Position numbers and translations under genes: made by a program. Shown here one piece after another: positions 926 to 34,233 of a stretch of DNA of 55,645 nt. A model generated the notes under the pieces. That model was given only the letters and a program-made list of their open reading frames with translations. It made no database searches and was not told the DNA's origin. Location: positions 1-55,645 of IMG/VR virus record IMGVR_UViG_3300012948_000295; one strand, 5' to 3'. This DNA is from a virus. Its lineage: Duplodnaviria; Caudoviricetes. How positions within the stretch are numbered: the stretch's first letter is position 1; each line of letters begins with the position of its first letter.

Positions 926-927
926 GT

Positions 928-1473: not shown

Positions 1474-1516
1474 CACTAACATGCGGGCATGGCATGCTCG
1501 CAAAGAAGGGAAGATT

Positions 1517-2533: not shown

Positions 2534-2614
2534 GTGCAGCGATGGACAAGCCAGCGTGCTACACTACACGAGGGGAAACACATTACAAGTGGTGTAGCAC
2601 AAGGGGGAAATACC

Positions 2615-3289
2615 ATGCAACGACTGGGATTTGCTGTGCTTGGACTCATGCTATGGGCAGGGAGTGTGGCAGCAGAGCAAACAATCGTCTGGCAGACCGC
2701 GACAGTGCCGACTTGCACGCCATCAAGTAGCTATGCCGGTGGGACAACGGCCTATCTGGAATGGGGGCCAGCAGGGACGATGCCAGCAGGCATGACCCCT
2801 GTAGGATATATACCGGAGCAACAGATTGGCGCGGGGGCATGGACCCCACTTCCCAGCGTCAATTACCAGACAACGCGCACGACAGTAGGGCCGCTGAGGC
2901 AAGAAGGGATGTATACTTTTCGTGTCAAAACACGGGCGAAAAAAGGCACGCAGACGATGGATTCCGCCTATGGGCCGGCCGGGGTACCCGCTCCCTGCTT
3001 ACAGGTAGTTGCGCCTGCGACGCAGCCACTCGTTCTCAGCGCCAAACCGTCCTGCGGGGCCACCTGCGTAGAACTGCGCTGGAATGCCACAGCGCCGATG
3101 GACCGCTTTACCATGCAACGCTCGAATCCGCAGGACCCAAGCGAGGCCGTCCAGACGAACGCGTATCCGATTATTGGTTCGAGTGCCAATGACGACACTG
3201 TACGGGCTGGCCGATCATATTGCTACCAGGTGGCACCAGAAGGCAGCACTGTTTGGAGCAATAAAGATTGCCTCACGCTCAGCCCGTAA
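2615..3289 (+). CDS. Secreted fibronectin-III-like protein
   Basis: Signal peptide; LEW..YTFRVK and VELRWNA..DDTVRAGRSYCYQV Fn3-type motifs. Confidence 0.7.
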   Translation: MQRLGFAVLGLMLWAGSVAAEQTIVWQTATVPTCTPSSSYAGGTTAYLEWGPAGTMPAGMTPVGYIPEQQIGAGAWTPLPSVNYQTTRTTVGPLRQEGMYTFRVKTRAKKGTQTMDSAYGPAGVPAPCLQVVAPATQPLVLSAKPSCGATCVELRWNATAPMDRFTMQRSNPQDPSEAVQTNAYPIIGSSANDDTVRAGRSYCYQVAPEGSTVWSNKDCLTLSP

Positions 3290-3326: not shown

Positions 3327-4379
3327 TCACTCCCTCCGATAGCGGCGCTGGTGCCGCCGCGGGGTATCCGTGGGCACGAGAAGAAAGGCATGGGGCTCTC
3401 CATTCAGAGTTCCCGTGCCCACAATGCGCCCAGTCTCACTGATGCCCACGGCTATTTCGAGCAGCCAGTCCCCCGTAGGAATCAGGGTATTGAGATCAAC
3501 AAAACGGTCATACTGATGGCGCAGAGCCCGAGCGCAGCAAATCCCAGGAGGAAGCGCCATGAAGCCCACCGCCACACCGGCGCTATTGACGGCGGTAAGA
3601 ACTGTTGCGTCCTGGCCAGGGATAATACCCAATTCCTCCAGTCCATCCGTCGGCGTCCAGCGAAAAGCCCCACTATCAAGTTCCCCGACCACTTCCCCGC
3701 TGTCACTGAGACCCAGGGCATTGCTATGCACCAAAGCCTCTGGAGTCAAGTCTACTGGCGCACTGCCATCTGCTGGCCACAGCGTGGCATGGATGCCAAA
3801 GCCTGCCAGCATGGATTGGCCTACTTTGGTGCCCGTCTGATTGATGGCCGTGATCGAGCCACGCACCCCGCCCAGGGTAGGCCGGGTTTGCGGACCCCCG
3901 CCAGCACGGAGCCAGAGGCAAGGAACTGGTTCGCCAAGAGCCTGCTCACAGGCGCCCACAATTTCTGTGCCATTGACTGCCGCGGCCGTAGAGGTCAGGG
4001 TGGGATCACTGTTCAGCGTGCCTAGATCAGTGAGGGTATTACTCGTCAGATCAAGAAGCAGGGCATGAGTCTGCAAGGCCCCTGGCCCGGTACTGCCCAC
4101 ACCCACGGCTACGGTGCCATCACCCCCGAAAAGTTCACTGGAAAATCCGCCTGGCAACACACCACTGAGGCGCGCCGGTTGGCCTTGTTGGACAAGAACC
4201 CCCTGATCGCCCAGTTTGCCCACCACGAGAGGCGGGTCCACATGGGTCACCAGGTGCAAGAGCCGCACCTGCGCCCCCAAGTCCACCACAGTATATTCAA
4301 TAGGGCCAGCCTGGACCTGGCCTATGATGAACCCGAAGATCAGCAGGGGCAGACTCCCTCTGCGAATGTAGCAGTGCAT
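3327..4379 (-). CDS. Secreted HAF-repeat extracellular protein
   Basis: Signal peptide; DLGTL, AINQTGTKVG, GAFRW, DLNTLIP..GISETGRIVG..HAFLL repeats. Confidence 0.85.
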   Translation of the reverse strand: MHCYIRRGSLPLLIFGFIIGQVQAGPIEYTVVDLGAQVRLLHLVTHVDPPLVVGKLGDQGVLVQQGQPARLSGVLPGGFSSELFGGDGTVAVGVGSTGPGALQTHALLLDLTSNTLTDLGTLNSDPTLTSTAAAVNGTEIVGACEQALGEPVPCLWLRAGGGPQTRPTLGGVRGSITAINQTGTKVGQSMLAGFGIHATLWPADGSAPVDLTPEALVHSNALGLSDSGEVVGELDSGAFRWTPTDGLEELGIIPGQDATVLTAVNSAGVAVGFMALPPGICCARALRHQYDRFVDLNTLIPTGDWLLEIAVGISETGRIVGTGTLNGEPHAFLLVPTDTPRRHQRRYRRE

Positions 4380-4439
4380 TGCATCTCCTTTTCCTATGCT
4401 CTGTACTCTCTGGTTCGCTTCTGACGAGAAAGGATTGCC

Positions 4440-4868
4440 ATGATACCACGCTGGGTCTTTGTTGACGAGCAGCGGTCACGGCGGGCGCGGCGGGCGCGCT
4501 GGTCCTGGGATGCCAAGTCCCAGGCCATGCGCAGACTGCGCCTCGCTCTACGTGCCTGTGGCGTGCAGCAGCCCATGCTGCTGCTGTACCTCTGGCGCGA
4601 CGACGGGACCCCTGACACCTTTGTGGCCATTCAACTGCGCCTGGGCCACGCCCTAGCGGGCTGGCAATTGGTGGGCCTGGGCACGAAGGTGCAGTACGAA
4701 CTGGCGCGGCTAGGACTGCCCTACCAAGCTATGATCAGTCCGACCACCAGAGGCCATATGCGTGACCAGGCCCGATACAGGGCCCATGTGGCTTCAGTTC
4801 TGGGTCTTACGGCAGCTTATGCTGTGGCAAGCCCGAAAGGTCCACATCCCCACCCAAACGCCAGTTGA
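4440..4868 (+). CDS. Hypothetical protein
   Basis: 142-aa ORF with AAGGA RBS; no recognisable motif. Confidence 0.4.
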   Translation: MIPRWVFVDEQRSRRARRARWSWDAKSQAMRRLRLALRACGVQQPMLLLYLWRDDGTPDTFVAIQLRLGHALAGWQLVGLGTKVQYELARLGLPYQAMISPTTRGHMRDQARYRAHVASVLGLTAAYAVASPKGPHPHPNAS

Positions 4869-5046
4869 TGCAGTCATGCAGAGCGGCAGTACCTGTGACA
4901 GTAACGGTATAGCGCAAGCCAAAAGGCAACATGTTCACGGACACAATACACGCAGAGACATGCGCTTCTTCGAGCACACGCGCGTAATGGGGCATGGTCC
5001 AGCAGCCGCCCAGGCTCAGCATACCCAGGAGCAGGAGCCAGCGCAT
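4807..5046 (-). CDS. Small lipoprotein, last gene of the virion operon
   Basis: MRWLLLLGMLSLGGC lipobox; directly follows the 5051 gene. Confidence 0.6.
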   Translation of the reverse strand: MRWLLLLGMLSLGGCWTMPHYARVLEEAHVSACIVSVNMLPFGLRYTVTVTGTAALHDCINWRLGGDVDLSGLPQHKLP

Positions 5047-5050
5047 GCCC

Positions 5051-7723
5051 CTACCTCCGCCGCAGGTTTGGCGCACTCTGCCAAGGATTAACCAGCCGCA
5101 GTGCTCCCGGCGGCGGGGGCGCAGCCACGACAAACTCAAACGCGCCGGCATCATAGCCACTGCCCTGTGGACGTGTATTCCCCTCAAAATCAAGGGGCAC
5201 TGCAGCGAGTGTCACCCCAATATCCAAGGCCGGGCTATTGCTTTGCAAGTGAAAGTCGCCCGTCGCGGCATTCACAAACTGGGGATTGCCGACCACCGCG
5301 CACCCGGTACCAGCGGCAGTACACACATTCCCGGCAAAGGTTGGGCTTGGGGAGGCATTACTGATCCCCCCCGTCGTGGCCACAATGTTATTTTGTGCAC
5401 TGACCCCAGTAATATCTGCGTCGAATTGCAGACCCGCAGTGGTTAGGTTGGCAATCGTATTGTTGAAAATCTGGGCGCTATTTTCGCCTTGCTGAAGGTG
5501 CAGGCCGCTACCGTCGAGGATATTGTTCATCGCCAGGAGACCCGTGCCTGACAAGGCCTCAATAGCCCACTGTGGGGTGCCAGCCGCCGCATGGATGCGG
5601 TTACTATCAATGGTAGTGTTGCTATTAAAGGCGACCCCAGCATTACTTGAGCTGATCACAATGCCCCGCCCAGTAAACCCCGACAGGTCATTATGCTGCA
5701 CAAAGGAGCCAGCTACCTCCATAATACGCAAGAGCCCGACATTCTGGGTGTTGTTTTGCAAGGTATTGCTGACCAGTTGGTGATTCGGACTCTCTACCTG
5801 GATAATCGCCCGCCCACTATTTTTGAGCGTCATATCCTGCAATTTAATATGGTGTGAGGCATTAAAGAAATAGACGACGTGGTCGCCGGTGCCACCGGCA
5901 TCAATCGTTATACCCTGGAATACGATATACTGACTGGTGCTGGCCTGGAGCACCACGGCGACCTGCGTACTGGAGAGGGTAGGCGCCCACGTCACCACCT
6001 CGCCACTGTAGCGGCTAATGGTGGTAGGAGCGGCAAAGCTAGAGCCCCCAGGGATGGCAAAGACGGTATCATCGACAATCTCAGTATACGTGCCCGCACG
6101 GTAGAAGAAAGTGGAGCCGCCCAGAGCACACTGAACGGCAGTGGCCAGAGTCGCCAGCGGGGTTGCTGGCGCCGTCGCTTGCGCACAGGTTCGCGTATCA
6201 TCGCCCGTCACCGCACCACTGCTGGGTCCAATATAGTAGGTGCCCAGGGCTGGAGTTCGAGAAATGGCTGAGTAGGTCACAGTCAGGGTATCGGTAGCCG
6301 TCTGGCTCTGGGCATCGCTGGCCGTGACAGTAATGGCATTGGAGCCACTGGTGAGCGGGATGCTGGCGACACTCCAGGTGACCGACGTACCACTGCTGCC
6401 ACAACTAGGACAGGAAACGGTAGGGGTCCCACAGGAGGGCGAGCAGCTCACGCTAACGCTTGTCACCCCAACATCATCTGTCGCCGTCCCAGCCAGGGTA
6501 GTGAGGGGGGTAGTTGAGGTACCATATGTTGTACCACTCGTTGGTGCGGTGATGGTAATGGCCGGGGGGGCGCTGGTGCTGGTGCCACCATACTCATAGG
6601 CCCCAGCATCATAGCAACAGCCCACCGGACGTGCAGCGCCGTCCATGTCAATATTATAGGGAGAGCCCAAGGTTGTGCCCTGATCAATGGCATTCGTTGC
6701 ACTAGAGGTAAGGTGGAAATCCTGAGCTCCGGCATTGACAAATGCCACGCTGGTGGTAACTGTGTTGGCGACAGAGGCCCCGGCATCATTTTGCACGTTG
6801 GGCGAGTTGTTGTTGCTAATCACATTGCGTGCGACACTAGAACTGGACGTTCCTGACTGAAAGTAGAGCCCGCCAGCGCTGTTGCCATAAATGGTGAGAC
6901 TGTAATACGTCGAGGGGTACCACTGGCTCCAGATGCCGTTGCCCTGGTTGCCCCAGAAGATCGAATTGTAGGCGGTCACAGAGGTGGGAACGGTCATGCC
7001 CCCAGAAAAATTGTCATGGCATACCGTGTTGCGTACAATGTTGTTGGCGCCATAGAACTGTAACCCCCAGCCGTTGTTGTGATCCGACTCGACGTTAATG
7101 ACACTATTGCCATCACTATAGTCATAGATACCGTGACAATACCCAGGCTGTGCCGTGGTGCCGTGACACCCAGTACTGCCCTGGCCGCTGTGGTGAATAT
7201 GGCTATTTTTAACCGTATTGTTACCCGCGCCGCAGCCAACGGCATTGGAATCACAAAACATGGCAATGCCTTGATTCCGGGCATAGGCGATTTCCACATC
7301 GTCAACAGTTGAGCCCGAGTTGGCGATGATACGCATGCCATAGCTAAAGACCTCACTGGCTCCATCACAGGTAAGGGATTTGATCGTGACGTTCGTGGTA
7401 CCACTCAGAATTTCGAAACAGGGATTGTTACTCCCGGCTGTAGGACGAATAATCGTTCCAGCCCTGGACTCGCCCTGCACAGTGGTACCCGACTTGGGGA
7501 AGAAGTTATTCTGGTCATAGGTGCCGGCGTGGATGAGGACCGTATCGCCACTCGTCGAGTTGTTAATTGCCTGGGTGATGCTGGAGCAGGGCGAGCCAGA
7601 AGTGCAGGCCGTGCCGCCTCCGCCAGACGCAACAACATGATAGGTTGCCGCCACCGCCAGGGAAGGGAGTAGCAGGACCAGGAAGAAAAGCCAACAGCGC
7701 GGCCAGGTCACAGAGCAAGACAT
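5051..7723 (-). CDS. Secreted multidomain protein: beta-helix, Ig-like, beta-helix, with choice-of-anchor-Q-like ends
   Basis: Signal peptide; GDTVLIHAGTY; DFHL..S.A.D.G...D.GA.E motif twice; PPAITITAPT..GSNAITVTASDA Ig-like domain. Confidence 0.85.
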   Translation of the reverse strand: MSCSVTWPRCWLFFLVLLLPSLAVAATYHVVASGGGGTACTSGSPCSSITQAINNSTSGDTVLIHAGTYDQNNFFPKSGTTVQGESRAGTIIRPTAGSNNPCFEILSGTTNVTIKSLTCDGASEVFSYGMRIIANSGSTVDDVEIAYARNQGIAMFCDSNAVGCGAGNNTVKNSHIHHSGQGSTGCHGTTAQPGYCHGIYDYSDGNSVINVESDHNNGWGLQFYGANNIVRNTVCHDNFSGGMTVPTSVTAYNSIFWGNQGNGIWSQWYPSTYYSLTIYGNSAGGLYFQSGTSSSSVARNVISNNNSPNVQNDAGASVANTVTTSVAFVNAGAQDFHLTSSATNAIDQGTTLGSPYNIDMDGAARPVGCCYDAGAYEYGGTSTSAPPAITITAPTSGTTYGTSTTPLTTLAGTATDDVGVTSVSVSCSPSCGTPTVSCPSCGSSGTSVTWSVASIPLTSGSNAITVTASDAQSQTATDTLTVTYSAISRTPALGTYYIGPSSGAVTGDDTRTCAQATAPATPLATLATAVQCALGGSTFFYRAGTYTEIVDDTVFAIPGGSSFAAPTTISRYSGEVVTWAPTLSSTQVAVVLQASTSQYIVFQGITIDAGGTGDHVVYFFNASHHIKLQDMTLKNSGRAIIQVESPNHQLVSNTLQNNTQNVGLLRIMEVAGSFVQHNDLSGFTGRGIVISSSNAGVAFNSNTTIDSNRIHAAAGTPQWAIEALSGTGLLAMNNILDGSGLHLQQGENSAQIFNNTIANLTTAGLQFDADITGVSAQNNIVATTGGISNASPSPTFAGNVCTAAGTGCAVVGNPQFVNAATGDFHLQSNSPALDIGVTLAAVPLDFEGNTRPQGSGYDAGAFEFVVAAPPPPGALRLVNPWQSAPNLRRR

Positions 7724-7731
7724 AGGCACTC

Positions 7732-8628
7732 CTATGGCCGCGCCCTTGGCGGCTTGAAAAAGAGCAGAAATTGGGAATTGCCAGGAGACACGGCTTGGAA
7801 CAGCACAGCTCGCAGGCCAGGAAAGACAAGCATTCCAGGGTCTCCCAGGCGTGAGAGGGTATAAACCTCCCAGATCTCTTTACCAGGGAGCAAGCGATTC
7901 CAAATTCGCACATCATCCATGGCGCCGTGAAAGGCCCGTGAAAATGACTCATTGCTACCAATGTATAGTGTACTATTGTTATCACTGCTGGCAGTCCCTA
8001 CTGGGGTCGTATTCACCGTGACACTCCCGGCATTGAAGCCATTGACATAGAATATCGGGAGGTTGCTGGTGCTGGTACGGTCATAACTCATACAGATGTG
8101 GGTCCAGGTATTCAGGGGAAAGAGACCCGCGACGTTCCAGGATCCCCCAGTAGTAGAAAAGTCATAATTGAGTTGCACCCCATTGCCATTATAAAAGAGC
8201 ATCCAGCCCGTGTTGTCGAACTTGTTAATAATGCGACCCGCACTGCTGCCCCCATAATCAATGGGATTGGTCCAGACGCAGACAGTTTTCTGATCCTGGT
8301 CTGTCACCCCGGAAGGCTTCCCCATATTAACAATATCATCGACCCCATCAAAGTTTAGTTGCCCCACGCCGCCTGGCCGCGTTGAGCCCGACCAGCCCGA
8401 GGCGCTCCCCACGGCCATATTCGTCAGCGTCCCAGGAAAGCCCCCGACCAGATCATAGAGGGTGAGGCTCCCGGTCCCCCCAGGAATGCCCCGCCACCAG
8501 CCCTGCAAACGCCGCAGGAGGGGATGATCCTTGGCGACCTGGCTAAATTGCTGCGTCTCGCCAAGCGTCACCCCGAGCACAGCAATAGCCAGCACTAGCG
8601 CGACACTGAGGCGACGAGCGAACGACAT
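7732..8628 (-). CDS. LamG/concanavalin-like domain protein with signal peptide
   Basis: LNFDGVDD, NTWTHIC, FYVNG, FHGAMDDVRIWNR. Confidence 0.85.
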   Translation of the reverse strand: MSFARRLSVALVLAIAVLGVTLGETQQFSQVAKDHPLLRRLQGWWRGIPGGTGSLTLYDLVGGFPGTLTNMAVGSASGWSGSTRPGGVGQLNFDGVDDIVNMGKPSGVTDQDQKTVCVWTNPIDYGGSSAGRIINKFDNTGWMLFYNGNGVQLNYDFSTTGGSWNVAGLFPLNTWTHICMSYDRTSTSNLPIFYVNGFNAGSVTVNTTPVGTASSDNNSTLYIGSNESFSRAFHGAMDDVRIWNRLLPGKEIWEVYTLSRLGDPGMLVFPGLRAVLFQAVSPGNSQFLLFFKPPRARP

Positions 8629-8641
8629 GTGTGTGGTCCCT

Positions 8642-9202
8642 TCAGGTATTCTGCATCTGTATGGGCATAGGCGTAAACACACACTTATGCTTGGTGGTCG
8701 AGGTCTCTACGGGTAAGGCGGAGCCATTAAAGAACCCCAGGGCAAAATACCGGGCAGGCAGGTAGATATTACGAAAGGTGGCGATCATGGTGGTATTCGT
8801 GGTAACCTGATCCACCACGAGGGTGCCAATCCAAGTGAGGTTGCGGCGCTTATCCGACGTGGCCCACGCGGCATTGGCGGTTACACCGCCATCCAGCGTA
8901 GCGCCATCCTGCGACGTGACAACGTAATATTCCAGACCCTGGCCAACCACATTGGTGCCAGTGAGGGAAATCGAGCACTGTGCCTGGAATAACGAGACAT
9001 GCGCTCCCGCACCCAGATCGGACAGAGCTGAGGTCTGTCCGCCCCCACTCGCCTTGGCACTGAAGGCCATGGTGACCGTACCACCCGAATCAGCAAAGGT
9101 AATCGCGGTGCCTGGCAGGGTCCACTGGGTAGAGGTAGCCCAGGCCACCATCGGCGACAAGAAGAGGGCAAAGGCCAGAGCAAGGGCAAGGTGTTTACGC
9201 AT
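8642..9202 (-). CDS. Tail-cluster beta-sandwich protein with signal peptide
   Basis: MRKHLALALAFALFLSPMVAWA; position in tail cluster. Confidence 0.65.
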   Translation of the reverse strand: MRKHLALALAFALFLSPMVAWATSTQWTLPGTAITFADSGGTVTMAFSAKASGGGQTSALSDLGAGAHVSLFQAQCSISLTGTNVVGQGLEYYVVTSQDGATLDGGVTANAAWATSDKRRNLTWIGTLVVDQVTTNTTMIATFRNIYLPARYFALGFFNGSALPVETSTTKHKCVFTPMPIQMQNT

Positions 9203-9211
9203 GGTCAATCC

Positions 9212-9811
9212 CTATGGCAACGGCACGTTGTCTATAGCGTGGGCAACGTCCAGGCTACTGATGAGTCCTTCATACCCAAGATTCGCTGGCGTCGCTGTCG
9301 AACCATTGCCCGAGCCCTGGATAATCAAGAGGGCCTCGCCCCGCAGTGCCTGACGCCTGGACAGCGAGAGCAAAAAGGCTTGTTGCGCAGCCGGTGCCCC
9401 TTGCCCACTAAAAATCTTGGTAAAGGCAGCCCGTGTCTGGCTGAGACTGGGGTTGACGATGCCGGGATGCATCATGGTATTCCAGGCATCGCGTTCCTGC
9501 ACGGATTGCTGAAGAAACGTAGTCCAGTTCCAGGTTGAACTATCCGGACTGACGGCCTCATAGATTTCTTTTTCGGGCATACTGGAACGCCACACCCAAA
9601 AAGCCGGGCTGGCCAGCGCGTTATATTTCGCCGCAAGACTGGCCCAATTTTTGGCGGCAACGTCAGCCGCCATTTCCGCCTGATTGGTCACCAGGATATC
9701 GTTGCGCAGGACATCATACTGCGCCGGCGTGAGACCGACGGCCCAGACATGCAGAGGCACAGCGAGCAGCAGGAGAAGCCCTATGACCTGGGGAAGCTTT
9801 GTACCATTCAT
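9212..9811 (-). CDS. Conserved phage tail-cluster protein with signal peptide
   Basis: LTPAQY..L..DI, YNALASPAFWVWRS, GSTATPANLGYEG; hydrophobic N-terminus ending VWA. Confidence 0.65.
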   Translation of the reverse strand: MNGTKLPQVIGLLLLLAVPLHVWAVGLTPAQYDVLRNDILVTNQAEMAADVAAKNWASLAAKYNALASPAFWVWRSSMPEKEIYEAVSPDSSTWNWTTFLQQSVQERDAWNTMMHPGIVNPSLSQTRAAFTKIFSGQGAPAAQQAFLLSLSRRQALRGEALLIIQGSGNGSTATPANLGYEGLISSLDVAHAIDNVPLP

Positions 9812-9818
9812 GTCATCC

Positions 9819-12800
9819 TCAATTCGTTGCAACGATTTGGGTTTTGGTCAGAACGCTCGAATACCGTAAACCAACCATCATCCATGTACTGACACCCGCA
9901 GGGCACGATACAGGGAGGGGCACATTGGGCGATGCAATATAGTTTGATTCCCAGACGATGCTTTGCGCATTGGTGCAGAGGAAGAGAAAAACCACCATAT
10001 CCCCGTCATTTTGATTCACCGTAATATTTTTGATCGTCAGTGTGCCACTTGCACCCGTCATTTGCATTTGACACTGGTCGCTTGTGTCCCAAGAACAGAG
10101 GAAGTTGACGCTACTGGTAAGAGTGGTAATGCGGTTCTGAGGTGCCCGTGTCGTCGCCATAAGACAGTATTTGCCGCTGGTGCTATTGAAGCTATAGAGA
10201 AAATGATTGTACGTAATATTGTCGCCGGTAATGCCTGTAGGCAGGGCAAGGCCACATTCGTTACTGTAGAGCGTGTCCCAGGTGATAGCCACAGGGGTGG
10301 CCCCTTTAAAGACAAGTTCGAGGCTTTGCTGATCCGTAGGCGTCCCAATCGGATTGGCGACGAAAGTGGCGACAGCCAGATCATAGCGGTAAGCCACGTC
10401 CGTCGTATCAATGTTGGGGGTGACAGTCGTCCTGGTCCCGAGCTGGACTACACGCGGAACAATCTCTTTGTTTGTGAGCACCGCCACTGCGCTATTCTTG
10501 GTCGCGTCACTCGTATTATCGACGTTCCCCAGGCCTACATCACTCTTAGTCGGCTGCGCCGTCGAAAGCACCCCTGTATCACTTAAGCCCGTGACAAACT
10601 GTGACGTCGCCGGGGTCAGCGAGCGCACCGTATGCGTGGCAATCCCGGCATCATCGAGCAGTTCCAGCACTTTAGCCGTACTATCGACGTAAAGCGTGGC
10701 TTTCCCGCTTGCTGGCGTTCCTGGCTGGACCATAGGCGTCAACGTGAGACGCTGGGAGGGTGTGGCATCGCTAAAACACGTCACAGTGACGCACGTTCCC
10801 ACGGTGTTTACAGCCGGAGGCGATCCGGCTAAATCCCCGTAGCTGAGCTGACTGACTGTGAACGCACCGCCTACGCTATTTTGGCGCACCACAAACGAGG
10901 CCCCCCCCGACGTACTAAAATCAGTGGTGCCCGCAGGAAACGTAATGGTATTCGCCCCAGAGACAGCAGGAGACTTCAGCGTCACTGTTCCCGACGTTGC
11001 GCCCGAGAGCAGGAGTTGCTTGACCGTCTGGCCTGTGGCACTCGTAAACACGTTGGCCGCTGTCAGATCTGCAGCATTGGTTACTTGCGCCGCCGTATAA
11101 TCCCCGCTGGCCGCTGTGACCGCGCCAGTACGGGTAAACACACTCGACACAGCACCTGTAGGAGGCGTGCCTGTCAGCTCACTATAGTCCAGCGTGGCAA
11201 CGGTAATCGCTCCCCCAGCAGTCGATTGGCGTAGAATTCTTCCAGCCCCACCCGTAGACGACAGATCAGTGGTGCCCGCTGGTAGTGTCAGCGTATTACT
11301 CCCCGCCACTGCTGCAGATTTGACCGTCAGTGATCCCGACGTGGATCCAGGCAAGATAAGCTGTTTCATCGACTGGCCAGCAGCACTCGTAAACACGTTT
11401 GCTGCCGTCAAGTCGGCAGCATTGGTCACGAGGGCCGCTGTATAGTCTCCTGTTTGTGCAGTAATAGCGCCGGTGCGGCCAAACACGCTGGCAACGGCAC
11501 CTGTAGGAGGCGTGCCTGTCAGCTCGCTATAGTCCAGTGTCGCAACGGTAATTGCTCCACCCGCAGTGGACTGGCGTAACAGTCTTCCAGGCCCACCCGT
11601 AGATGACAGGTCGGTTGTACCCGCTGGCAGAGTAAGCGTGTTACTCCCCGCCACTGCTGCAGATTTGACCGTCAGTGATCCCGACGTAGCCCCTGGCAGG
11701 ATAAGCTGTTTCATCGACTGGCCAGAGCCAGACGTAAAGATATTGGCGATCGTCACGTCAGCAGCGTTGGTCACCTGGCTTGCTGTATAGTCGCCTGTTT
11801 GCGCCACAACCGTTCCTGTGCGTCCAAAAACAGAACCCACTGATCCACTGGGGGGGACTCCTGTAATTTCGCTATAGTCGAGGGTTGAAACCGTAAACGG
11901 CCCCCCCACCGTCGCTTGCCTCACAACTTTTCCGGGCCCCCCGGTTCCCGAAAAATCAGTCGTGGCCGCAGGCAGTGTCAAAGTTTGCGCTCCACCCCCA
12001 GCAGGAATAAGCACCGTCAGCGTATTGGGCGCCGTGCCGAGAATAAGCCTACGCATCGTCTGGCCTGTGGCACTCGTAAACACGTTGGCCGCTGTCAGGT
12101 CCGCAGCATTAGTCACTTGTGCCGCCGTGTAGTCACCGTTGGTCGCAACCACAGCCCCTGTGCGACTAAAGACGCTCGCAACGGGCGCAGCAGGAGGTGT
12201 CCCGGTGAGTTCGCTATAGTCGAGCGTGCCCACAGTCAAGGGTGCTCCTGTGGCGACTTGCTTGACCACGCGGCCAACTCCCCCCGTCGTCGTGAAATCA
12301 GTACTCCCGGCTGGCAGCGTGAGCGTGCTAGCGCCTGCGACTGCTGCAGATTTGACAGTTAACGATCCAGACGTCGCCCCTGGCAAGATAAGTTGCTTCA
12401 TGCTTTGCCCAGTGGCACTACTAAACACGTTAGCCGCTGTCACGTCGGCAGCATTCGTCACTTGACTGGCGCTATAATCCCCGTTCGATGCGGCGACAAT
12501 GCCGGTGCGGCCAAACACACTCGCCACCGCACCAGCCGGAGGCGTCCCCGTCAGATCGCTATAGTCAAGCTGGCTGACTGTGAGTGCGCCTCCTACGCTG
12601 TTTTGCCGCACGACAAACGACGTGCCGCCCGACGTGCTGAAATCCGTGGTCCCGGCGGGCAGTGTGAGAGACTGCGCACCACCCGTGCCAGGCACTTGCA
12701 GCGTCACAGTATTAGGCGCCGTGCCTATCGTGAGCTTACGCACCGTTTGCCCGGTCGCGTTGGTAAACGTATTAGCGGCTGTGGTATCGGCAGCGTTCGT

Positions 12801-12986
12801 GACTTTTGCCGCTGTATAATCGCCTGGCTGGGCAATAACATCGCCAGTACGCCCGTACACGCTGCTCACAGCCCCCGTGCCAGCCGTGCCCGTAGGACGA
12901 CTCCCCACACTACCCGTTTGCAGAGCTGTGGCTGTAGAGCCTGTCAGGCACGCCAGAAGAAGGATTAAGAGGAGGAGGCGTCTCAC
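9819..12986 (-). CDS. Tail fibre-like protein with six ~115-aa repeats and signal peptide
   Basis: V.SVFGRTG.V.A..GDY repeats; KSDVGLGNVDNTSDATK fibre motif; NPIGTPTD..ITW C-terminal domain. Confidence 0.85.
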   Translation of the reverse strand: MRRLLLLILLLACLTGSTATALQTGSVGSRPTGTAGTGAVSSVYGRTGDVIAQPGDYTAAKVTNAADTTAANTFTNATGQTVRKLTIGTAPNTVTLQVPGTGGAQSLTLPAGTTDFSTSGGTSFVVRQNSVGGALTVSQLDYSDLTGTPPAGAVASVFGRTGIVAASNGDYSASQVTNAADVTAANVFSSATGQSMKQLILPGATSGSLTVKSAAVAGASTLTLPAGSTDFTTTGGVGRVVKQVATGAPLTVGTLDYSELTGTPPAAPVASVFSRTGAVVATNGDYTAAQVTNAADLTAANVFTSATGQTMRRLILGTAPNTLTVLIPAGGGAQTLTLPAATTDFSGTGGPGKVVRQATVGGPFTVSTLDYSEITGVPPSGSVGSVFGRTGTVVAQTGDYTASQVTNAADVTIANIFTSGSGQSMKQLILPGATSGSLTVKSAAVAGSNTLTLPAGTTDLSSTGGPGRLLRQSTAGGAITVATLDYSELTGTPPTGAVASVFGRTGAITAQTGDYTAALVTNAADLTAANVFTSAAGQSMKQLILPGSTSGSLTVKSAAVAGSNTLTLPAGTTDLSSTGGAGRILRQSTAGGAITVATLDYSELTGTPPTGAVSSVFTRTGAVTAASGDYTAAQVTNAADLTAANVFTSATGQTVKQLLLSGATSGTVTLKSPAVSGANTITFPAGTTDFSTSGGASFVVRQNSVGGAFTVSQLSYGDLAGSPPAVNTVGTCVTVTCFSDATPSQRLTLTPMVQPGTPASGKATLYVDSTAKVLELLDDAGIATHTVRSLTPATSQFVTGLSDTGVLSTAQPTKSDVGLGNVDNTSDATKNSAVAVLTNKEIVPRVVQLGTRTTVTPNIDTTDVAYRYDLAVATFVANPIGTPTDQQSLELVFKGATPVAITWDTLYSNECGLALPTGITGDNITYNHFLYSFNSTSGKYCLMATTRAPQNRITTLTSSVNFLCSWDTSDQCQMQMTGASGTLTIKNITVNQNDGDMVVFLFLCTNAQSIVWESNYIASPNVPLPVSCPAGVSTWMMVGLRYSSVLTKTQIVATN
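10800..12875 (-). repeat. Six tandem ~345-nt coding repeats in the fibre gene (boundaries approximate)
   Basis: SV(F/Y)xRTG motif recurs near 12855, 12510, 12165, 11820, 11478 and 11135. Confidence 0.9.
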
Positions 12987-13300
12987 TGGGGTTTCTCTCC
13001 TTCTTTCTTGTCTGGCAGTGGAGGCACTGCCGCTTGCCCTGGCGGGGGCGGTGGCACAAGAAGCGCGTCATACTGCTTTTTAAGCTCCATAGCTTGCGCC
13101 CACAGCTCGGCTAGGTTGTCTTCACACCGCGCCGTCGCTTCTCGACTGCGTTGCAAAGCAATCTTAAGAGCAGCAAGCGACGGCTCTTGTTTCTCGTGTT
13201 GCTCTTGTGCCCACAGGCGAGGGGAGGAGGAGAGCAGGTACAAACTCATCCCCAGGCCCAGCCAGCGTCCCATACGTCCCATGTGGCCCAGGAGAGTCAA
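12983..13300 (-). CDS. Small secreted/membrane coiled-coil protein
   Basis: Signal-like N-terminus (LWA), heptad-like segment, poly-Pro tail. Confidence 0.6.
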   Translation of the reverse strand: MTLLGHMGRMGRWLGLGMSLYLLSSSPRLWAQEQHEKQEPSLAALKIALQRSREATARCEDNLAELWAQAMELKKQYDALLVPPPPPGQAAVPPLPDKKEGEKPQ

Positions 13301-13302
13301 CG

Positions 13303-13554
13303 TTACCGCTCCTTGTCTGCCGCGAGTTGGCGTTCAAGCTCGGCCACCCGCGCCTCCGCTGTTTCCGCACGATCCAGCAAGAGCGCGGCAAGCTGCTTCG
13401 TATAGGCCAGGGTGTCTTGCTCAATGCGCAGCAGCATTTGACACTGCCTGAGGGGCTCCGGGGGCACCCGTGGCGCCTCGGCCCAGAGCACGGGACTGGC
13501 CAGGGTGAGCCCCAGGCTCAGACTAATTACAGGCATTACTGGCGGTACTCGCAC
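13303..13554 (-). CDS. Small secreted/membrane coiled-coil protein
   Basis: LSLGLTLASPVLWA then AEARVAELERQL coiled coil; GTG start with GGGGAG RBS. Confidence 0.55.
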   Translation of the reverse strand: MRVPPVMPVISLSLGLTLASPVLWAEAPRVPPEPLRQCQMLLRIEQDTLAYTKQLAALLLDRAETAEARVAELERQLAADKER

Positions 13555-15838
13555 GCAGTCTCCCCGTCGTTTGATCGACACACACGACCTTCCAGGCGGT
13601 GCCACCTCCAGGCGAGGTCGTCAAATCGCCCAGACGCACGGCCCCGGCCGCAACGTTCAGTGCCCAGATATTGGTCAGCGTCATGTTCGTACTCGCTAAG
13701 GGACTATTCGCTATATAGACGGTTGAGGCATCCGTTGTCGTCACAGGGGTATTGCGAGCGGTCACAGTAGGCCGTTGAAACGCGAACGCATTCAGCGTCG
13801 CTGCTGTCCCACTCGCCGCAGTATTTTCATCGTTAAAGGTCGCAGCCGTGAAGTCGGCTATCGCCCCAGCAGTCCCAGGATGAGCGGTCTGAGTACTGCC
13901 TAACGTCAGCAGGGTAGACATGGGGTGTGAACTACTCCCTGTCGCTTGTTTACTCAGGGTACTACTAAAGGTCAGGATCCCTGCTGTCCCCGTCCCTGAC
14001 CCTATGGCGGCTTGCACAAGAAAACTCGCTGCGGCACTGTTCGATCCACTCCGAGTCCCCCCTGTCACCCCTATGGACTGTAACTGGGGCGATGCGGCAA
14101 AGCCGGACCCTGACACGCGGAAGGACGCAGCCTGAATATTCGCATCGGCACTATCAGCAGCGTTTCTAATACCAGCGAGCGAGTTCGCGAAGTACTTGAG
14201 CCGTGCCCCATCAGCAGCAGTGCCCAGGAGAACCGACTGCGTACTCGGCATACTCAGCCCAAGATTAAAGACGTGCGTCCCGGTCCACACATAGTTGGCG
14301 GTTTGATCCACGACGCCCCCAGCCCCCACGATATCCGCCGCACAGATAATTTGATTCGAGGCGTTGACCGTCAGCTTGCCGCCATTACTGTCGCCCGTGC
14401 AGATACTTGTGGTCAGATTCCACAGAATGCCAAAGGGTGTCGTATAGCCAAAAAAGAGGGTACCAGAGGCCCCGCTGGTGGTATAGAGGTTGGTCGTATT
14501 GGGAGCATAATTCTGATAGACGTAGGCGGCATTCGCGCTGGAGTTATCAAAATGAAAGGCACCGACGCTGCCACTGGTATTGGTGCCGTAGAAGATATTG
14601 TCCTTGATATGGGCCATGGCCAGTCCGGTGGCAACAACGGCGGCGGCATTGCTCCCCGCCACATTCACCTGATTGTCTTCGATGACACTGTTGCGCAGAA
14701 ACCGGGCATTCATCCCCTGGCCCCCGGCGACCGCACTATTGCGCAAGGTAATGAGATTGCCGATGAGTTTAAAATCGTCCAGGAAGAGATTGTCAACCGC
14801 CGACGACTGGAGGGCAATAGCAATCGAGCTATTGGCAAAGGAAGCGCCGTAATCAATGACGTTATTGGCGACCAGGAAATTCCGAAAGGTGTTGCCGGTG
14901 GTGGCGGTGACCGTGGACGACGAGCCGATTTTGATGGCATTCCTGACGGCGGTCCCAGTGCCGGTAAAGACGATGGTGTTCCCCTGGACGGTCATATTAT
15001 AGTACGAATAATCATTGACGTTGGCGGGATCGAGATCGATGCAGATACTGCCACAGGAGATGTTGCCATCGACAATATGGTTATTGATAATCTTGACGTT
15101 CTTAACCTGACGTCCAGAGGCGCCGGATTGACTGAAGACCCCGATGCCGGCCGTCATCCGGGGCCGCGTCACAAAATTGGAACTGATCGTCACTCCCGAA
15201 ACCCCGTCTACTTCCATCTGGGTATCATCCAGCACGTTGCCAAAAATCAGCGCATCGGTATCCGTCCCGGCCTGATCGCCGGTAGCAATAAGGCCGAATT
15301 TATCATTGGTATTGGTAGTATTGAGGTTCGAGTCAAAGATATGGTTATAGAGCGCCTTAAAGCGCATCACATGCCCAAACTTCGGCCCACCACAGAAGTT
15401 CAGGCAGTTGTTCATGTCAAAGCCCAGATTTTGCACGGTAATATCGGTATTGCCAGCCCCCGAGAAGTAGAGCAGGGGCAGCGTATCATTGCCGCCGCTC
15501 CCCGGCGAGAGCCGTTTGAGAATCGACTGATTGGCGCCGGGGCTGTTAAACGTCAGCCCGTGGCGATTCGTGACGTTAATATTTTCGACGACATAGGTCC
15601 CAGGCGGAAACCACACCGTCCCCCCATCAGGCGTTGCCGCAATCGCGGCGATAATCGCCGCGGTGTCGTTCGTGGTGCCGTCGCCAGTCGCGCTATAGGG
15701 CGCATCTTTGACGTTCGTGACTAGGGTCTGCCCCACACCCCCGGTACCGCCCCCAGTTTCTCCACCCATAATGAGCGCAAACGCAGGAGAGACGCAGCAG
15801 AGAAGACAGAGAAGAATAAGCAGAGAGAGACGCTTCAC
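13523..15838 (-). CDS. Tailspike-like beta-helix protein (Pectate_lyase_3-type N-terminus) with signal peptide
   Basis: NVKDAPYSATGDGTTNDTAAI..GTVWFPPGTY; N-terminal MKRLSLLILLCLLCCVSPAFA. Confidence 0.9.
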   Translation of the reverse strand: MKRLSLLILLCLLCCVSPAFALIMGGETGGGTGGVGQTLVTNVKDAPYSATGDGTTNDTAAIIAAIAATPDGGTVWFPPGTYVVENINVTNRHGLTFNSPGANQSILKRLSPGSGGNDTLPLLYFSGAGNTDITVQNLGFDMNNCLNFCGGPKFGHVMRFKALYNHIFDSNLNTTNTNDKFGLIATGDQAGTDTDALIFGNVLDDTQMEVDGVSGVTISSNFVTRPRMTAGIGVFSQSGASGRQVKNVKIINNHIVDGNISCGSICIDLDPANVNDYSYYNMTVQGNTIVFTGTGTAVRNAIKIGSSSTVTATTGNTFRNFLVANNVIDYGASFANSSIAIALQSSAVDNLFLDDFKLIGNLITLRNSAVAGGQGMNARFLRNSVIEDNQVNVAGSNAAAVVATGLAMAHIKDNIFYGTNTSGSVGAFHFDNSSANAAYVYQNYAPNTTNLYTTSGASGTLFFGYTTPFGILWNLTTSICTGDSNGGKLTVNASNQIICAADIVGAGGVVDQTANYVWTGTHVFNLGLSMPSTQSVLLGTAADGARLKYFANSLAGIRNAADSADANIQAASFRVSGSGFAASPQLQSIGVTGGTRSGSNSAAASFLVQAAIGSGTGTAGILTFSSTLSKQATGSSSHPMSTLLTLGSTQTAHPGTAGAIADFTAATFNDENTAASGTAATLNAFAFQRPTVTARNTPVTTTDASTVYIANSPLASTNMTLTNIWALNVAAGAVRLGDLTTSPGGGTAWKVVCVDQTTGRLRASTASNACN

Positions 15839-16203
15839 GGCAAGCCCTCAACAACCGACACAATTGCATCATTGGCGCCAGCACGAATGCACTGCCACTG
15901 CCCCTGTCCCTCTAAATCCATGCCGAGCCATTTCCAGCCACCCACCACAAAGCCGCTTGATGCCGTAGGAGGCGCATCGTTTGTTACGTCCGAACAGCGA
16001 ATATCGTTAGGCGAATTGTTATAGATAATCGCCGCACACCGAGCCGTATTAGCCATTAAGACAGTCACAGGCGTACTGCTAATCTGAATATCTTGTTGCG
16101 TTGTGCCCTGCACGTTCGCTTTGACTTTCCGGCAATTCTGGGCGTCTACCTGTGATAAACAGATCAGGCTCCCAAGAATCGCTCCAATTGTCCACAGCCA
16201 CAT
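15835..16203 (-). CDS. Small tail-cluster beta-sandwich protein with signal peptide
   Basis: ANTARCAAIIYNNS motif; N-terminus ending VDA; GGAGG RBS. Confidence 0.65.
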   Translation of the reverse strand: MWLWTIGAILGSLICLSQVDAQNCRKVKANVQGTTQQDIQISSTPVTVLMANTARCAAIIYNNSPNDIRCSDVTNDAPPTASSGFVVGGWKWLGMDLEGQGQWQCIRAGANDAIVSVVEGLP

Positions 16204-16224
16204 AGCCACCTCCTAAGCCGCGTT

Positions 16225-17112
16225 CTAGCGCGAAGCTACCCCGCTATAATCCACATACCAGGCATCGGCCAGGACATAACTGGTTGCGGTATCGCCCGCA
16301 TCATCCCCTAAGCGAGAGACGTTAAACACGTAACCATCCCCAGGCTGGAGCGAGGCCCCGGCCTGCGTGAGTTGGATCACATGACAATTGGTGTCGCCTG
16401 GCGCAAAATTGATCGTCTGAATGCCGCCGGCCGCAATCGCGGTATTATCCCGAAAGATCGTAAATTGCCACTGCATACGCGCTGTCCCCACCCCCGACGT
16501 GTTGAAGCGCCGAAACAGGTTGAGAATAAGCGTGGTATTCGGCTGCCACCCGTCAGGAATAAAGCCGCGAAAGTTCCAAGCTGTGGAGCCGGTCGGACTC
16601 CAGGTCGCGTTTTCATCACTAATAGAGTTGACAGCCACAGGCATGTGCCGCCGGGTATACGTGGTACGCCAGGTCGGCGTGCCCTTCATCTCTTGCTCGA
16701 CAAAGCGCAACTCCTTAATTTCATCGGCCCCAGACTGGGCGAGCACTTCTGTTCCCGCCTCCCCTGGATCAAGCGTCTCGTTACTCTGCGCCACGGTACT
16801 CGAATAATCGTTGATTAATGTTAAGTCCCCTTGTGGGTTGACCACAAAATTATCGACTGTCCAGAGCGTCACCCCTGTGGAGTCTCTCTGGCGAATCTTA
16901 TAGGCCACGCCAACCGTGAAATAGATATTGGCTCTCCCCGAGGCATCGAGCACCACAGGATTCGTATTTGGCGTAGCACCCGCCGGATCACTATACGTGG
17001 CCAGCGGCGTAAACGTGCCAGCCGCAAACGTATCAACCAGGCCACCTGCCAGCATGGCCCCGTTATTATTTGCGGCCCGGTATACTGGAAACGGCGCTAA
17101 AGCCACAGCCAT
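16225..17112 (-). CDS. Head-binding/adaptor tail protein (no signal peptide)
   Basis: NGAMLAGG..AAGT.TPLATYSD..NTNPVVLDASGRA, typical N-terminus of tailspike anchors in P22-like phages. Confidence 0.8.
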   Translation of the reverse strand: MAVALAPFPVYRAANNNGAMLAGGLVDTFAAGTFTPLATYSDPAGATPNTNPVVLDASGRANIYFTVGVAYKIRQRDSTGVTLWTVDNFVVNPQGDLTLINDYSSTVAQSNETLDPGEAGTEVLAQSGADEIKELRFVEQEMKGTPTWRTTYTRRHMPVAVNSISDENATWSPTGSTAWNFRGFIPDGWQPNTTLILNLFRRFNTSGVGTARMQWQFTIFRDNTAIAAGGIQTINFAPGDTNCHVIQLTQAGASLQPGDGYVFNVSRLGDDAGDTATSYVLADAWYVDYSGVASR

Positions 17113-17264: not shown

Positions 17265-20200
17265 CTAACGATCCACCGGGCCATCTGCCGCATCTGTCGA
17301 TTTCTGCCGCAGCCGCTCACGCATGGCGCCGAGAGCACCAGAGAGACCACCAACAATTTCCGGTGTCAGAATGCCCCCTGTGCGGTCTATCGCGCCAAGC
17401 AGCCACGGGCGCAGCGTTGGGGACAGGAATGCCTGTGACAGTAGATAATTAACCTGTGGGATGGCTTCTTTGGCCACCACAGCAGCAATAGGCAAATGCC
17501 CAAACATCGGACCAATGACCGGGATATGCTGGGCACCCGCCGCACCGCCAAGCTCTAAAAGCGCCGTTAAGGGATTGAACTGTGGCCGCGCCCCCAGTGT
17601 CGGCTCAAGCGCTGGGGGCACAGGCGGAAGCACAAGCGGCCCCTGCCCAGGCACCTGCACAGCGGGAGGACGCGGGGGCGGAAGCCCAGGCACCGGAGGT
17701 GTGCCAGGTATAGGCGCCACAGGGGCTATGCCAGGCGTAGGCGCCACAGGAGCTACGGGAAGCTGTGGCCGTGTGCCCCTTGGCATAGCTGGCGTTCCCG
17801 CAAAACTCGCCACATCAGCCCGAATCGCCGCTTGCTCTTCTGGCGGAAACCACCGCAGTACGTCTTTACTCGTGAGTTTGTTCAGCACCCCAGCAATATC
17901 AACCATGAGACGCCCCTGGTCATCTTGCCGCATGACGCCGCCTCTGCCGCGATTTTCGAGTATCCTATGCATCTCGTTGACGCCTTGCTCTTGCTTCCAT
18001 ACCCCGTGTGCTTGTTGCAGCAGGGGGAGCTGATCGGGGATAGACTCGCCGAGAGAATCATAAAACTTCCCAAAGAGTTCATTCGCGGCTTCCCGCGTGG
18101 CTCTATTGCCACTGCGGGTATAGGGGCCAAGCGCTTTAATATTCTCGTAGGCTTGTTTGCCGGTACTACCAGGCCCCTCTTTGGCGATGTTGCCGACGAG
18201 CGTTTGAAATTTGGGGTCCGCATATTCGAGACGTTTTTGCATCCCGGCAATAGCTTCCTGGACAGGCGATTGATCGACACTCGCACCACCGGCAATATCA
18301 AAGTAGCGCTGGTACATCTGGCTTGAGAGGCGCCCCTTGCCTCCTACTGAGACTTGCGGCGCTTCAGCCATTGCATGAAACTGCGGGGCTTCAAGCGTCG
18401 CATGGGTCGAGTAGACAGGGCGCCCCTCTTCAACGCTCGCCCGCACCGCATCCAGCAGCGATCCCTTATCATGAATATCGTAACCGCGCTGCATAAGTTC
18501 TTCGGCCATCTGGTCAGGCGTGAGTCCGTTTTGATTGAGGAGACGTGCCGTTTCTTTGCCGCCTTCACGCTTGCTAATAATGTGATAAAACTCTGTCCCA
18601 AGCTCAGGCTCTTTGCCCAAACTGATGCCGCCAAGCTCTTTAATTGCTGCCTGTAACTCTTGCGCTGGCTCGCCTGTTGGCATCTGCGGCTCTCTGCCAA
18701 CGACAGGCACGGCAGGACGCACAGCGGGTTGCGGCTTCGTCCCCATGCTGCCAGTCTGGGCATAGAGCGCCCCGCCTTCGTCAGCCAGCATCCGGGAAGC
18801 TGTGGCCACATCAGGCGCCCCGAGACGACGCAGGACGGCTTCAGACGCTGCTCCGCCCTGCTCCAGTCGCGCCATATCAAGACGCACGTCGTTAGGCGTT
18901 CTGGCAGGAGCCTGTGGCTTATACTGTTCGGGAAAACTTTCAAGACGTGTAGCCGCTTCTTGTTGGGCTTGCTGTGCTCGATCAAACGCTTGTTGTTTCT
19001 CCCAGGCTGTCCCATACTCCCCAACCTGCTTTTGATACGTCGCCTCCCCGGCTGCTGTCTCTTTTGTGTAGTCTTTCAGCTCGCCCGCGTACTCTTTTTG
19101 CTTGAGTGCTTCCCCCGCCTCAAAGGCTCTCTGCTCTGCGACGTTCGTTTTAGTATAGTCTTGCATACTTCTGGCATAGTCACGCTGACGCGACTTAGCT
19201 TCTTTCAGCGCAGCGGCATAGGCCGCAGCATCGCCCTTTTGCCTGGCATCCCGCAGCGCATCCACGCTCTTTTGCCAGGCTTGCTGTGCCTCAAACGTTT
19301 GCTGCTCAGCCGTCCTGACTGCCTGAGCCGCAGGACCTTGCCTGAGATAGCGCAAGCCTGCGGTTTCAGCGCCCTTAAACAGTCCTGGAATAGCCACAGC
19401 GGCGACATCACTCAGGTTGATCGGCACCGGCCCAACGTGCATCAGGGGTTGTTCTGGCTGGGTCAGTTCCAGACCCTTGTTGAGCCAGTTCGCCGCTATC
19501 CCTCCTGCTGCAGCACCCACAGTGGGAAATCCTACCAGGCTTCCCAGCGCAGCCCCGCCCATGCCCCCGGCGATTTGTACCGCTTCTGCCGCAAGTTGTT
19601 TCGGACCCCCGCCTACCCCTGTTGCCTCCCGAAACGTCTCAGGGGGAATAGGACGCAGCGGTTCAACCTGTGAAGCCTGGGAAGCCACAGGGGGGGAGGC
19701 ATCTCCTGCCCCTTCAATTGTCGCCGTTACCGAGCCTTCGCCATACTTTTCAGGCTCAGCAGGGAGGAGCGCATTAACCGCATCGTAGGGACTGCCCTCT
19801 TGTGGCGTCCCAGTGGGAGCGGGTGCTTGACTCCCACTGGGCAAGAGGGCATTTACCGCGTCATACGGGGAGGATGCTGGCTGCGCCTGTGCGACCTGTT
19901 GCGCTGGTGGGCCTGGCCGCAGGCCAGCCAGATGAGCGTAACGGGGATAGTGCTGCAGCACGTTTTGCGTAAAGTTGGGGTCACTGCCGCCGTTATACTG
20001 CATGAGTGCAGCGCCTACATCGCCCCTGTTCGCATCTAAGAGTTGCCGGAAGTGTTGCAAGCCAGCTCTGGCACTCACCTGTGGATCAGTCCTGGTTTGC
20101 GGCGTCTGGCCATACGCCGCACCTGTGGCATTCGTCACTTGCGCTAGTCCCTGCACGCCTGTGGGACTCTGGGCACTCGGATCAAAGCCCGATTCCTGAT

Positions 20201-22174: not shown

Positions 22175-22186
22175 ACGCTACCCCTG

Positions 22187-23374: not shown

Positions 23375-23384
23375 ATGCTACCCC

Positions 23385-25147: not shown

Positions 25148-25149
25148 AC

Positions 25150-25353
25150 CTATCTCCCGCTTTGTGGCGTGGGCGTGGGCGTTGGTGTCTCAGGCGCCGT
25201 GGGATGTGTCGGCTCTCCCGGCACGGGAGGGACAATAGGATGCTCTGGTGTCCCCTCATCCGGTTCTTCTATAGGGTGCGTGGGCTCTCCAGGACCTGGA
25301 GCCGTGGGATGCTCTGGATGCTCTGGATGCTCTGGATGCGTTGGCTGTGCCAT
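25150..25353 (-). CDS. Small Pro/His/Glu-rich (PEHP/PTHP) protein; start may extend to 25518
   Basis: HPEHPEHPEHP..EPTHPI; GGAG RBS. Confidence 0.55.
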   Translation of the reverse strand: MAQPTHPEHPEHPEHPTAPGPGEPTHPIEEPDEGTPEHPIVPPVPGEPTHPTAPETPTPTPTPQSGR

Positions 25354-26234: not shown

Positions 26235-26237
26235 TCT

Positions 26238-34226: not shown

Positions 34227-34233
34227 CTCGTCC

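Follow-up and report, generated by a model that had tools for sequence, protein, structure and literature searches.

Eleven consecutive genes on the minus strand of the IMG/VR virus record IMGVR_UViG_3300012948_000295 (55,645 bp, analysed at full length and here called the window) open with Sec-type leaders. These genes, labeled B to L (16203 down to 3327), lie directly behind A, the last tail gene of a P22-like operon. Judged from the sequence, the leaders are real, non-random and conserved, and the proteins encoded by B to L are very probably exported from the cytoplasm. For their action thereafter we tentatively favor the cell envelope or the medium over the virion. The genes discussed below, including three on the plus strand at the end of an operon for a type IV secretion system (T4SS), are the following.

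A, 16225-17112, minus strand: 295 aa, leaderless, tailspike head-binding domain at the N-terminus; the cytoplasmic tail genes end here and the exported block follows
B, 15835-16203, minus strand: 122 aa, leader, 4 Cys in the mature part
C, 13523-15838, minus strand: 771 aa, leader, pectate-lyase fold (tailspike-like)
D, 13303-13554, minus strand: small protein, leader, coiled-coil-like remainder
E, 12983-13300, minus strand: small protein, weaker leader, coiled-coil-like middle, Pro-rich tail
F, 9819-12986, minus strand: fiber of 1055 aa, leader, five 345-nt repeats, Cys-containing C-terminal tip domain
G, 9212-9811, minus strand: helical protein of 199 aa, leader, member of a large phage-specific family
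H, 8642-9202, minus strand: jelly-roll protein of 186 aa, leader, Cys pair
I, 7732-8628, minus strand: 298 aa, leader, LamG/concanavalin-like lectin fold (PF13385, E-value 1.5e-23)
J, 5051-7723, minus strand: 890 aa, leader, two beta-helix regions, Ig-like domain, choice-of-anchor Q domains, 19 Cys
K, 4807-5046, minus strand: lipoprotein of 79 aa, lipobox L-G-G-C, GGAGG upstream
L, 3327-4379, minus strand: HAF extracellular repeat protein of 350 aa, leader (TIGR02913, HAF homologues)
928-1473, 1517-2533 and 2615-3289, plus strand: leader genes at the end of the T4SS operon

Leaders, start codons and orthologues

The leaders of B to L are built alike: behind a short n-region come about 11-16 hydrophobic residues with no charge among them, and then a small-x-small site. 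As read from the translations, several of the leaders end in P-x-x-WA. We scored them with a home-made signal-peptide heuristic, using a threshold of 2.4. This value was reached by 10 of the 11 genes B to L, versus 2 of 39 other genes (33676-34014 and 51880-52620; Fisher p = 6.7e-8), the comparison set leaving out three plus-strand genes at 224-3289. The missing member, E, scored 2.0, just under the threshold. Sec-type signal peptides have a short, usually positively charged n-region, an h-region of about 7-15 residues and small residues at -3 and -1; by the same score the leaders fit this description, E and B being the weaker cases. In lipoproteins, the end of the h-region carries a lipobox of consensus [LVI][ASTVIG][GAS]C, and K shows such a site, with MRWLLLLGMLSLGG followed by C.

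An earlier, sequence-only reading of the window had placed leaders at 16203, 15838, 13554, 13300, 12986, 9811, 9202, 8628 and 7723, plus a lipoprotein at 5046. All ten starts are present, and the run is in fact longer than it had stated, since it takes in L and, if internal starts are used, the three plus-strand genes listed above. The VirB9-like lipoprotein gene at 224-925 (plus strand) likewise begins with a leader.

AGGAG-like motifs occur 6-10 nt upstream of the leader-including starts: AGGAGG precedes the ATG of B, GAGG lies upstream of the start of C, and AGGAG precedes the TTG start of E. At both the B/C and the E/F junction, stop and start codons overlap as GTGA. The Shine-Dalgarno motifs and the overlapping codons thus support the starts that include the leaders. 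Gene B begins 21 nt behind A, and from B to K no two neighbors are more than 21 nt apart, some of them overlapping. Promoter-like and terminator-like sites within the block were counted at the level of shuffled sequence.

Leaders were also found in orthologues from other contigs. In scans of metagenomes and IMG/VR, the gene order B, F-like, G, H, I, J-like, with every gene bearing a leader, recurred in G001 (54,145 bp, direct terminal repeats, CheckV 100%), in G002 (67,012 bp, the same contig as L082) and in the fragment L081; F-like fibers with leaders occur in two further contigs, G006 and G007. In the window, G001 and G002 alike, the module starts with B, whose homologues in G001 (two copies) and L082 have leaders. 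Among the orthologues of B, F, G, H and I the leaders differ in sequence and the mature start is conserved, that of G always reading (V/Q)GL(T/S)xAQY. Two homologues of C (P0002 and P0003, 32-37% identity) each have a different leader of their own. Of the 24 closest F homologues (P0007-P0030), 20 carry a leader of the MRR-poly-Leu type followed by a conserved Cys-containing domain; the exceptions are P0011, P0017, P0025 and P0028, two of which lack the initial Met. The tip domain of F is common to several of these closest homologues, and the distant ones show ordinary leaderless tail-fiber N-termini. In G001, the last ejection gene and the B-like gene are 480 nt apart (L160 5866-6343), with a small open reading frame (104 aa) on the opposite strand between them, and the A-like gene lies upstream of the ejection genes; the exported module may be a transcription unit of its own there.

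Scans of viral contigs with the single proteins C, A and F gave nothing useful. Matches of the C alignment to bacterial genome contigs were discarded, as they came from unrelated bacteria and were driven by the generic YGATGDGTTNDTAAI motif of PF12708.

We also considered that the hydrophobic N-termini might be uncleaved membrane anchors, or artefacts of choosing an upstream start. The stored gene call for C (P0001, 748 aa) indeed begins downstream of the leader, at M24, where C has an in-frame ATG (residue 24), the stored call for F (P0006, 1013 aa) also begins after the leader, and a B-like protein of G001 has a longer, anchor-like segment of about 19 residues. However, Shine-Dalgarno motifs precede the upstream starts and not the downstream ones, and the h-regions measure 11-16 residues and are followed by small-x-small sites. 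Moreover, the in-frame starts that would drop the leaders of G, H, I and J either fall within the leader or truncate conserved mature sequence, and the leaders recur in orthologues of 30-56% identity from independent contigs. Taken together, these observations make the anchor or artefact explanation very improbable. The stored calls for L (P0126), G (199-aa form) and B (122-aa form) retain the leader, those of G and B being found letter for letter in the Atlas.

The cysteine content was compared as well. The mature parts of the exported proteins contain 68 Cys in 4570 residues, versus 46 in 7430 for 15 cytoplasmic proteins (p = 3.7e-6). When the per-protein counts are summed for the virion proteins, A to portal, the result is 10 in 4550. 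In H, the Cys pair is present in all four leader-bearing members of the alignment (A5) and in none of the four leaderless ones. The motifs CTSGSPC and CDSNAVGC lie in J, and CSWDTSDQC in F, as the sequence-only reading had noted. The extra cysteines fit folding in an oxidizing compartment, which that reading had also proposed.

Families, leaderless relatives and the site of action

Most of the block consists of phage-type families: a repeat fiber (F), beta-helix enzymes (C and J), lectin-like folds (H and I) and the phage-specific B and G. The match of C to PF12708 has an E-value of 3e-11 (43.9 bits, cut-off 27), and its beta-helix begins about 20 residues past the predicted cleavage site; F matches phrog_16348 (E-value 7e-30). 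No N-terminal particle-binding domain was found ahead of the beta-helix or fiber in C, F or J, the mature forms of C and F beginning directly with the beta-helix or the repeats. Such a domain is instead carried by A, whose residues 11-87 match PDB entry 7eeq, "Tailspike head-binding domain" (E-value 1.6e-5; 9vyg, E-value 0.005). Residues 1-130 of A are 40-49% identical to tailspike N-termini in 10 phage records, including PBR31 and P26218 (tblastn), so the earlier label "head-binding adaptor" for this gene was apt. Used as a tblastn query against relatives of the window, A returned A-like genes only, with a full-length homologue in G001.

For G, the AF2 model (m0773c504f1e3, pLDDT 88.6) is a helical domain; fold searches of PDB, BFVD and VIA-wide gave no match (best Z 5.0), and no Pfam or PHROG match was found. 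G is thus an uncharacterized fold common in uncultured phages. Both B and G fall in viral "hypothetical" clusters of the Atlas. The model of H (pLDDT 76.6) gave only weak matches to Eph-LBD/TNF-like jelly rolls (TM ≤ 0.47), and family scans gave no match for D or E. PDB sequence searches with F, J and P0026 returned no matches.

The proteins J and L are of another kind. J matches PF13229, PF17957 and NF041518 and had no match in phage records; a leader-bearing paralogue of its N-terminal half, also a PF13229 beta-helix, is encoded at 1517-2533 on the plus strand. L lies behind a 427-nt gap that holds one promoter-like site (4468-4440), and is probably a separate transcription unit. The description "tail-region genes", used previously for the block, was therefore only partly right, as the choice-of-anchor Q domains of J and the HAF repeats of L are signatures of bacterial surface proteins.

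The cytoplasm is regarded as the place where tailed-phage fibers and spikes fold and are assembled, and a check set beforehand was whether homologues in other phages lack the leader. Such homologues exist for G, H and I. Leaderless forms of G (alignment A6) occur in L161, L162, L163 (contig G003), L166, L167 and L171, and leaderless forms of H (alignment A5) in L166, L167, L168/L169 and L171, each with a Met at the conserved mature start. L162 and L169 encode leaderless I-like LamG proteins, whose alignments to I begin at their residues 11 and 21, opposite I residues 29 and 33. Wherever both G and H were present, their leader states agreed (7 of 7 loci). The leaderless genes are flanked by the portal and head protease genes in L166 and by a tail-terminator-like gene and the tape measure in L169, and they lie upstream of the terminase and portal in G003. 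Beta-helix proteins of L162 were tried as leaderless counterparts of J and dropped, as they had no significant similarity to it.

The leader state of G has, on the sequence comparison, changed repeatedly. A profile search collected 1085 cluster representatives of the family at an E-value of 1e-3 or better, and a clear leader was seen in 36 of the best 150. On a FastTree phylogeny of 145 representatives, the leader label required 17 changes, at least 5 of them forced by well-supported (starred) branches; shuffled labels required 32.2 on average, and none of 500 shuffles was as low as 17. The leader thus appears to have been gained or lost repeatedly in this family, and the function of G would therefore tolerate either route out of the cell.

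On these grounds our leading interpretation, held with somewhat less than even confidence, is that the block is a conserved, mobile, exported appendage module of phage-type families, whose products are envelope-bound or act freely. In this lineage each protein of the block would have gained an N-terminal Sec-type signal peptide, or a lipoprotein signal in the case of K. The gene spacing suggests tightly coupled translation of B and the genes after it, downstream of the tail gene A. Given the anatomy of the leaders, the Sec translocon would export the products, signal peptidase I (signal peptidase II for K) would cleave the leaders, and the extra, mostly even numbers of Cys suggest periplasmic folding with disulfide bonds. 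Assembly of the exported proteins onto virions in the cytoplasm would not take place. Outside the cytoplasm, and this is the least certain step, the set of fiber, depolymerases and lectins might bind and cut surface polysaccharide. It could do so from the envelope of the producing cell or as free proteins, and so serve the spread of an element that combines a virion module with a T4SS.

We favor action from the envelope or the medium for several reasons. The module is present in G002, which has the genes for a coupling protein (T4CP), VirB4, VirB10 and MobA, together with a RecT-like gene, and shares MobA (41%), T4CP, VirB4 and VirB10 with the window. In this T4SS-bearing contig, six head/packaging profiles (phrog_2, phrog_15, PF05065, PF04860, PF16510 and phrog_283) found no match, and the same profiles do find G001. 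Further reasons are the absence of a docking domain from mature C and F, the position of the leader-bearing J paralogue in the T4SS operon and the bacterial surface-protein signatures of J and L. A protein whose work begins only outside the cell should also gain or lose a leader more easily. Finally, the surface-located MAT fibers of Bdellovibrio bacteriovorus, as described in the accessible part of PMC10769870, offer a precedent.

Several points weigh against this interpretation. The leaders were assigned with a home-made score rather than an established signal-peptide predictor, the n-region of B lacks a positive charge, and there are the downstream stored starts of C and F mentioned above. 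In relatives, tailspikes and lysis genes occupy the place taken here by the module, and the close spacing of A and B, with no promoter or terminator signals above chance, fits virion or late-stage roles. The leaderless G, H and I genes inside the structural operons of other phages suggest a virion-linked ancestry. G001 and G007 are phage-like, with TerL and no VirB4, and have kept leader-bearing fibers, so the link to conjugation is not general. The head-gene negatives of G002 and G006 refer to six profiles, G006 is about 77% complete, and IMG/VR classes both contigs as linear. A Sec leader, moreover, reaches only the periplasm, and no route across the outer membrane was identified.

Some of these points would suit an arming of virions outside the cytoplasm. 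Fibers and spikes folded in the periplasm would then dock on A or on the tail, after lysis or in the medium, and would be the real receptor-binding proteins of the phage. The block lies right behind the ejection genes and A, at the tailspike position of related phages, and A is short and adaptor-like. In G007 the order is an SLT ejection protein, a leaderless fiber or adaptor of 434 aa and a leader-bearing fiber, and G001, a P22-like phage without T4SS that is complete by its terminal repeats, has kept the whole module. The leaderless relatives in structural operons can be counted on this side too, and P22 heads take up purified tailspikes in vitro. Nevertheless, no docking domain is seen in mature C or F, and a conserved partner is missing: the window and G001 have A-like proteins, but none was found in G002, the module-bearing contig where the six head/packaging profiles had no match. 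Dilution after lysis would make assembly inefficient, and no precedent was found in the literature searched. We consequently regard virion arming as a possibility, but an unlikely one, and rank it below action from the envelope or the medium. The sequence-only reading had proposed export followed by either virion attachment or a role as cell-surface adhesins; the export part agrees with our results, and the evidence on the destination leans to adhesins.

Another role outside the cytoplasm would be in egress or exclusion. Exported depolymerases and lectins might remove or cover the polysaccharide receptor on the cell that makes them, so that progeny are spared loss on debris or superinfection is blocked. 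C and J are predicted beta-helix enzymes of the polysaccharide-lyase type, H and I have predicted lectin-like folds, and the gene spacing suggests late co-expression; exported exclusion proteins of phages, such as T5 Llp and Cor, do exist. However, masking would come at the heavy cost of a 1055-aa fiber and at least 10 genes, and no route across the outer membrane can be seen. We judge this role improbable.

A bolder scheme is in our view rather unlikely. A soil podovirus-like/conjugative lineage might have turned its entire host-recognition module, made up of fiber, tailspike-like enzymes, lectins and small partner proteins, into a Sec-exported, disulfide-bonded one, either added to virions outside the cytoplasm or displayed by the donor to recognize T4SS recipients. 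If this were true, phage receptor-binding hardware would be common to infection and conjugation, with the T4SS on the same 55.5-kb phage-like replicon.

The replicon carrying the module

The first 123 bases of the window recur exactly at its end (1-123 = 55523-55645), and the element is therefore circular or terminally redundant, with a size of about 55.5 kb. A P22-like morphogenesis operon runs on the minus strand from 37153 down to 3327. It encodes a large terminase, a P22-type portal (Pfam E-value 2e-151), a scaffold, a major head protein, a gp4-like adaptor, a gp10-like head closure protein and three ejection proteins, with a lytic transglycosylase domain in the last of them. The head, tail and ejection module is complete in the window (16225-37153, minus strand). 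The plus strand (38216-55639 and 224-925) encodes a D5/NrS-1-type primase-helicase, a MobA relaxase, T4CP, VirB4, VirB6, VirB8 and VirB10, and, across the junction, the weakly VirB9/CagX-like lipoprotein (224-925). No integrase was found among the scanned window proteins.

The element thus joins a complete P22-like head/tail module with a relaxase and a T4SS, a combination that, according to the accessible part of a 2025 review, had not yet been found (PMC12282955). An assembly chimera is a possible source of such a combination in the window. The sequencing-run search listed one DNA run containing the element, from soil and perhaps the source sample of the contig, and no RNA runs. The matches of L and VirB4 reached only about 32-38% identity, came from diverse sources and indicated no host.

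Three genes of the HNH / endonuclease VII type are interspersed in the head module, and these may be homing endonucleases.

26859-27452, minus strand: HNH / endonuclease VII-type gene between the major head protein and the adaptor
28705-29328, minus strand: HNH / endonuclease VII-type gene between the scaffold and the head protein
34234-34782, plus strand: HNH / endonuclease VII-type gene near the portal

Two further repeats were seen. At least about 9 tandem copies of the 9-nt unit CGCCTCTCA lie at 40924-41036 within the D5-like primase-helicase gene (39852-42467), where they encode a short peptide repeat between the domains of the protein. At 45616-45680, just upstream of the MobA relaxase gene and inside or at the end of a T5orf172-domain gene, an exact 32-nt repeat occurs with 33-nt spacing; it might be an oriT or an iteron-like element.

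Two relatives, PBR31 and P26218, have a lysis cassette of holin, endolysin and spanin genes right after the tailspike. None of these families was found among the scanned window proteins (17265-37153 and 3327-16209, some small open reading frames being unscanned). The only spanin-like candidates in the window are D and E, with a leader and coiled-coil-like sequence, and the lipoprotein K.

Significance and relation to known systems

In this conserved fiber/spike module every member has an export signal, and other phages have counterparts without one. This would point either to a new, extracytoplasmic step of virion assembly or to a route that turns receptor-binding proteins of phages into adhesins and depolymerases of mobile elements, placed on the cell surface or secreted. 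On either reading, genome-based prediction of host range is affected, as callers of genes and of receptor-binding proteins cut off or ignore the leaders. In the partial full-text collection searched, no description of leader-bearing fiber or spike modules in tailed phages was found.

Exported proteins encoded among the structural genes of phages are known in the form of morons, such as lambda Lom and Bor and T5 Llp, which bear leaders. Morons are single genes with a promoter and a terminator of their own, independent of the late operon, whereas B to K are ten tightly coupled genes of phage-type families. L may be a moron, given the 427-nt gap ahead of it.

A second comparison is with secreted and SAR endolysins, spanins and the antiholin RI, late proteins of phages that rely on the host Sec system and work in the envelope (PMC6116005). 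The accessible part of that paper mentions signal peptides for endolysins only, and not for fibers, spikes or depolymerases. The block would be alike in being late, Sec-using and directed to the envelope, and differs in that the known proteins serve lysis. Two-component spanins lie in a lysis cassette and pair an i-spanin, which has an N-terminal TMD and a periplasmic coiled coil, with an o-spanin lipoprotein encoded next to it or embedded in its gene. D and E would supply a leader and coiled-coil-like sequence and K a lipoprotein, but K lies 8 kb away and no holin or endolysin was found nearby.

With P22/Sf6-type tailspikes and the adaptor-borne multi-tailspike sets of podophages, the block shares both folds and genomic position, as seen in the head-binding domain of A and the pectate-lyase beta-helix of C. 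However, known tailspikes are leaderless and have their own N-terminal particle-binding domain, while here that domain resides on a separate, leaderless protein (A) and the spikes and fiber carry signal peptides.

The MAT fibers of Bdellovibrio are phage-tail-fiber-like and have an N-terminal signal peptide; the next 130 aa or so form an invariant beta-rich N-terminal domain, and the tips vary (S74, TNF-like, lectin), as far as the accessible part of the paper describes them (PMC10769870). The likeness, made by description and not by sequence, lies in a long fiber with a leader, and in the closest F homologues, too, the leader is followed at once by some 150 residues of conserved domain; F itself lacks such a domain. 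MAT fibers are encoded by chromosomal genes of a predatory bacterium, whereas the fiber described here is encoded in a P22-like element, in a late operon that also holds beta-helix enzymes and small phage-specific proteins.

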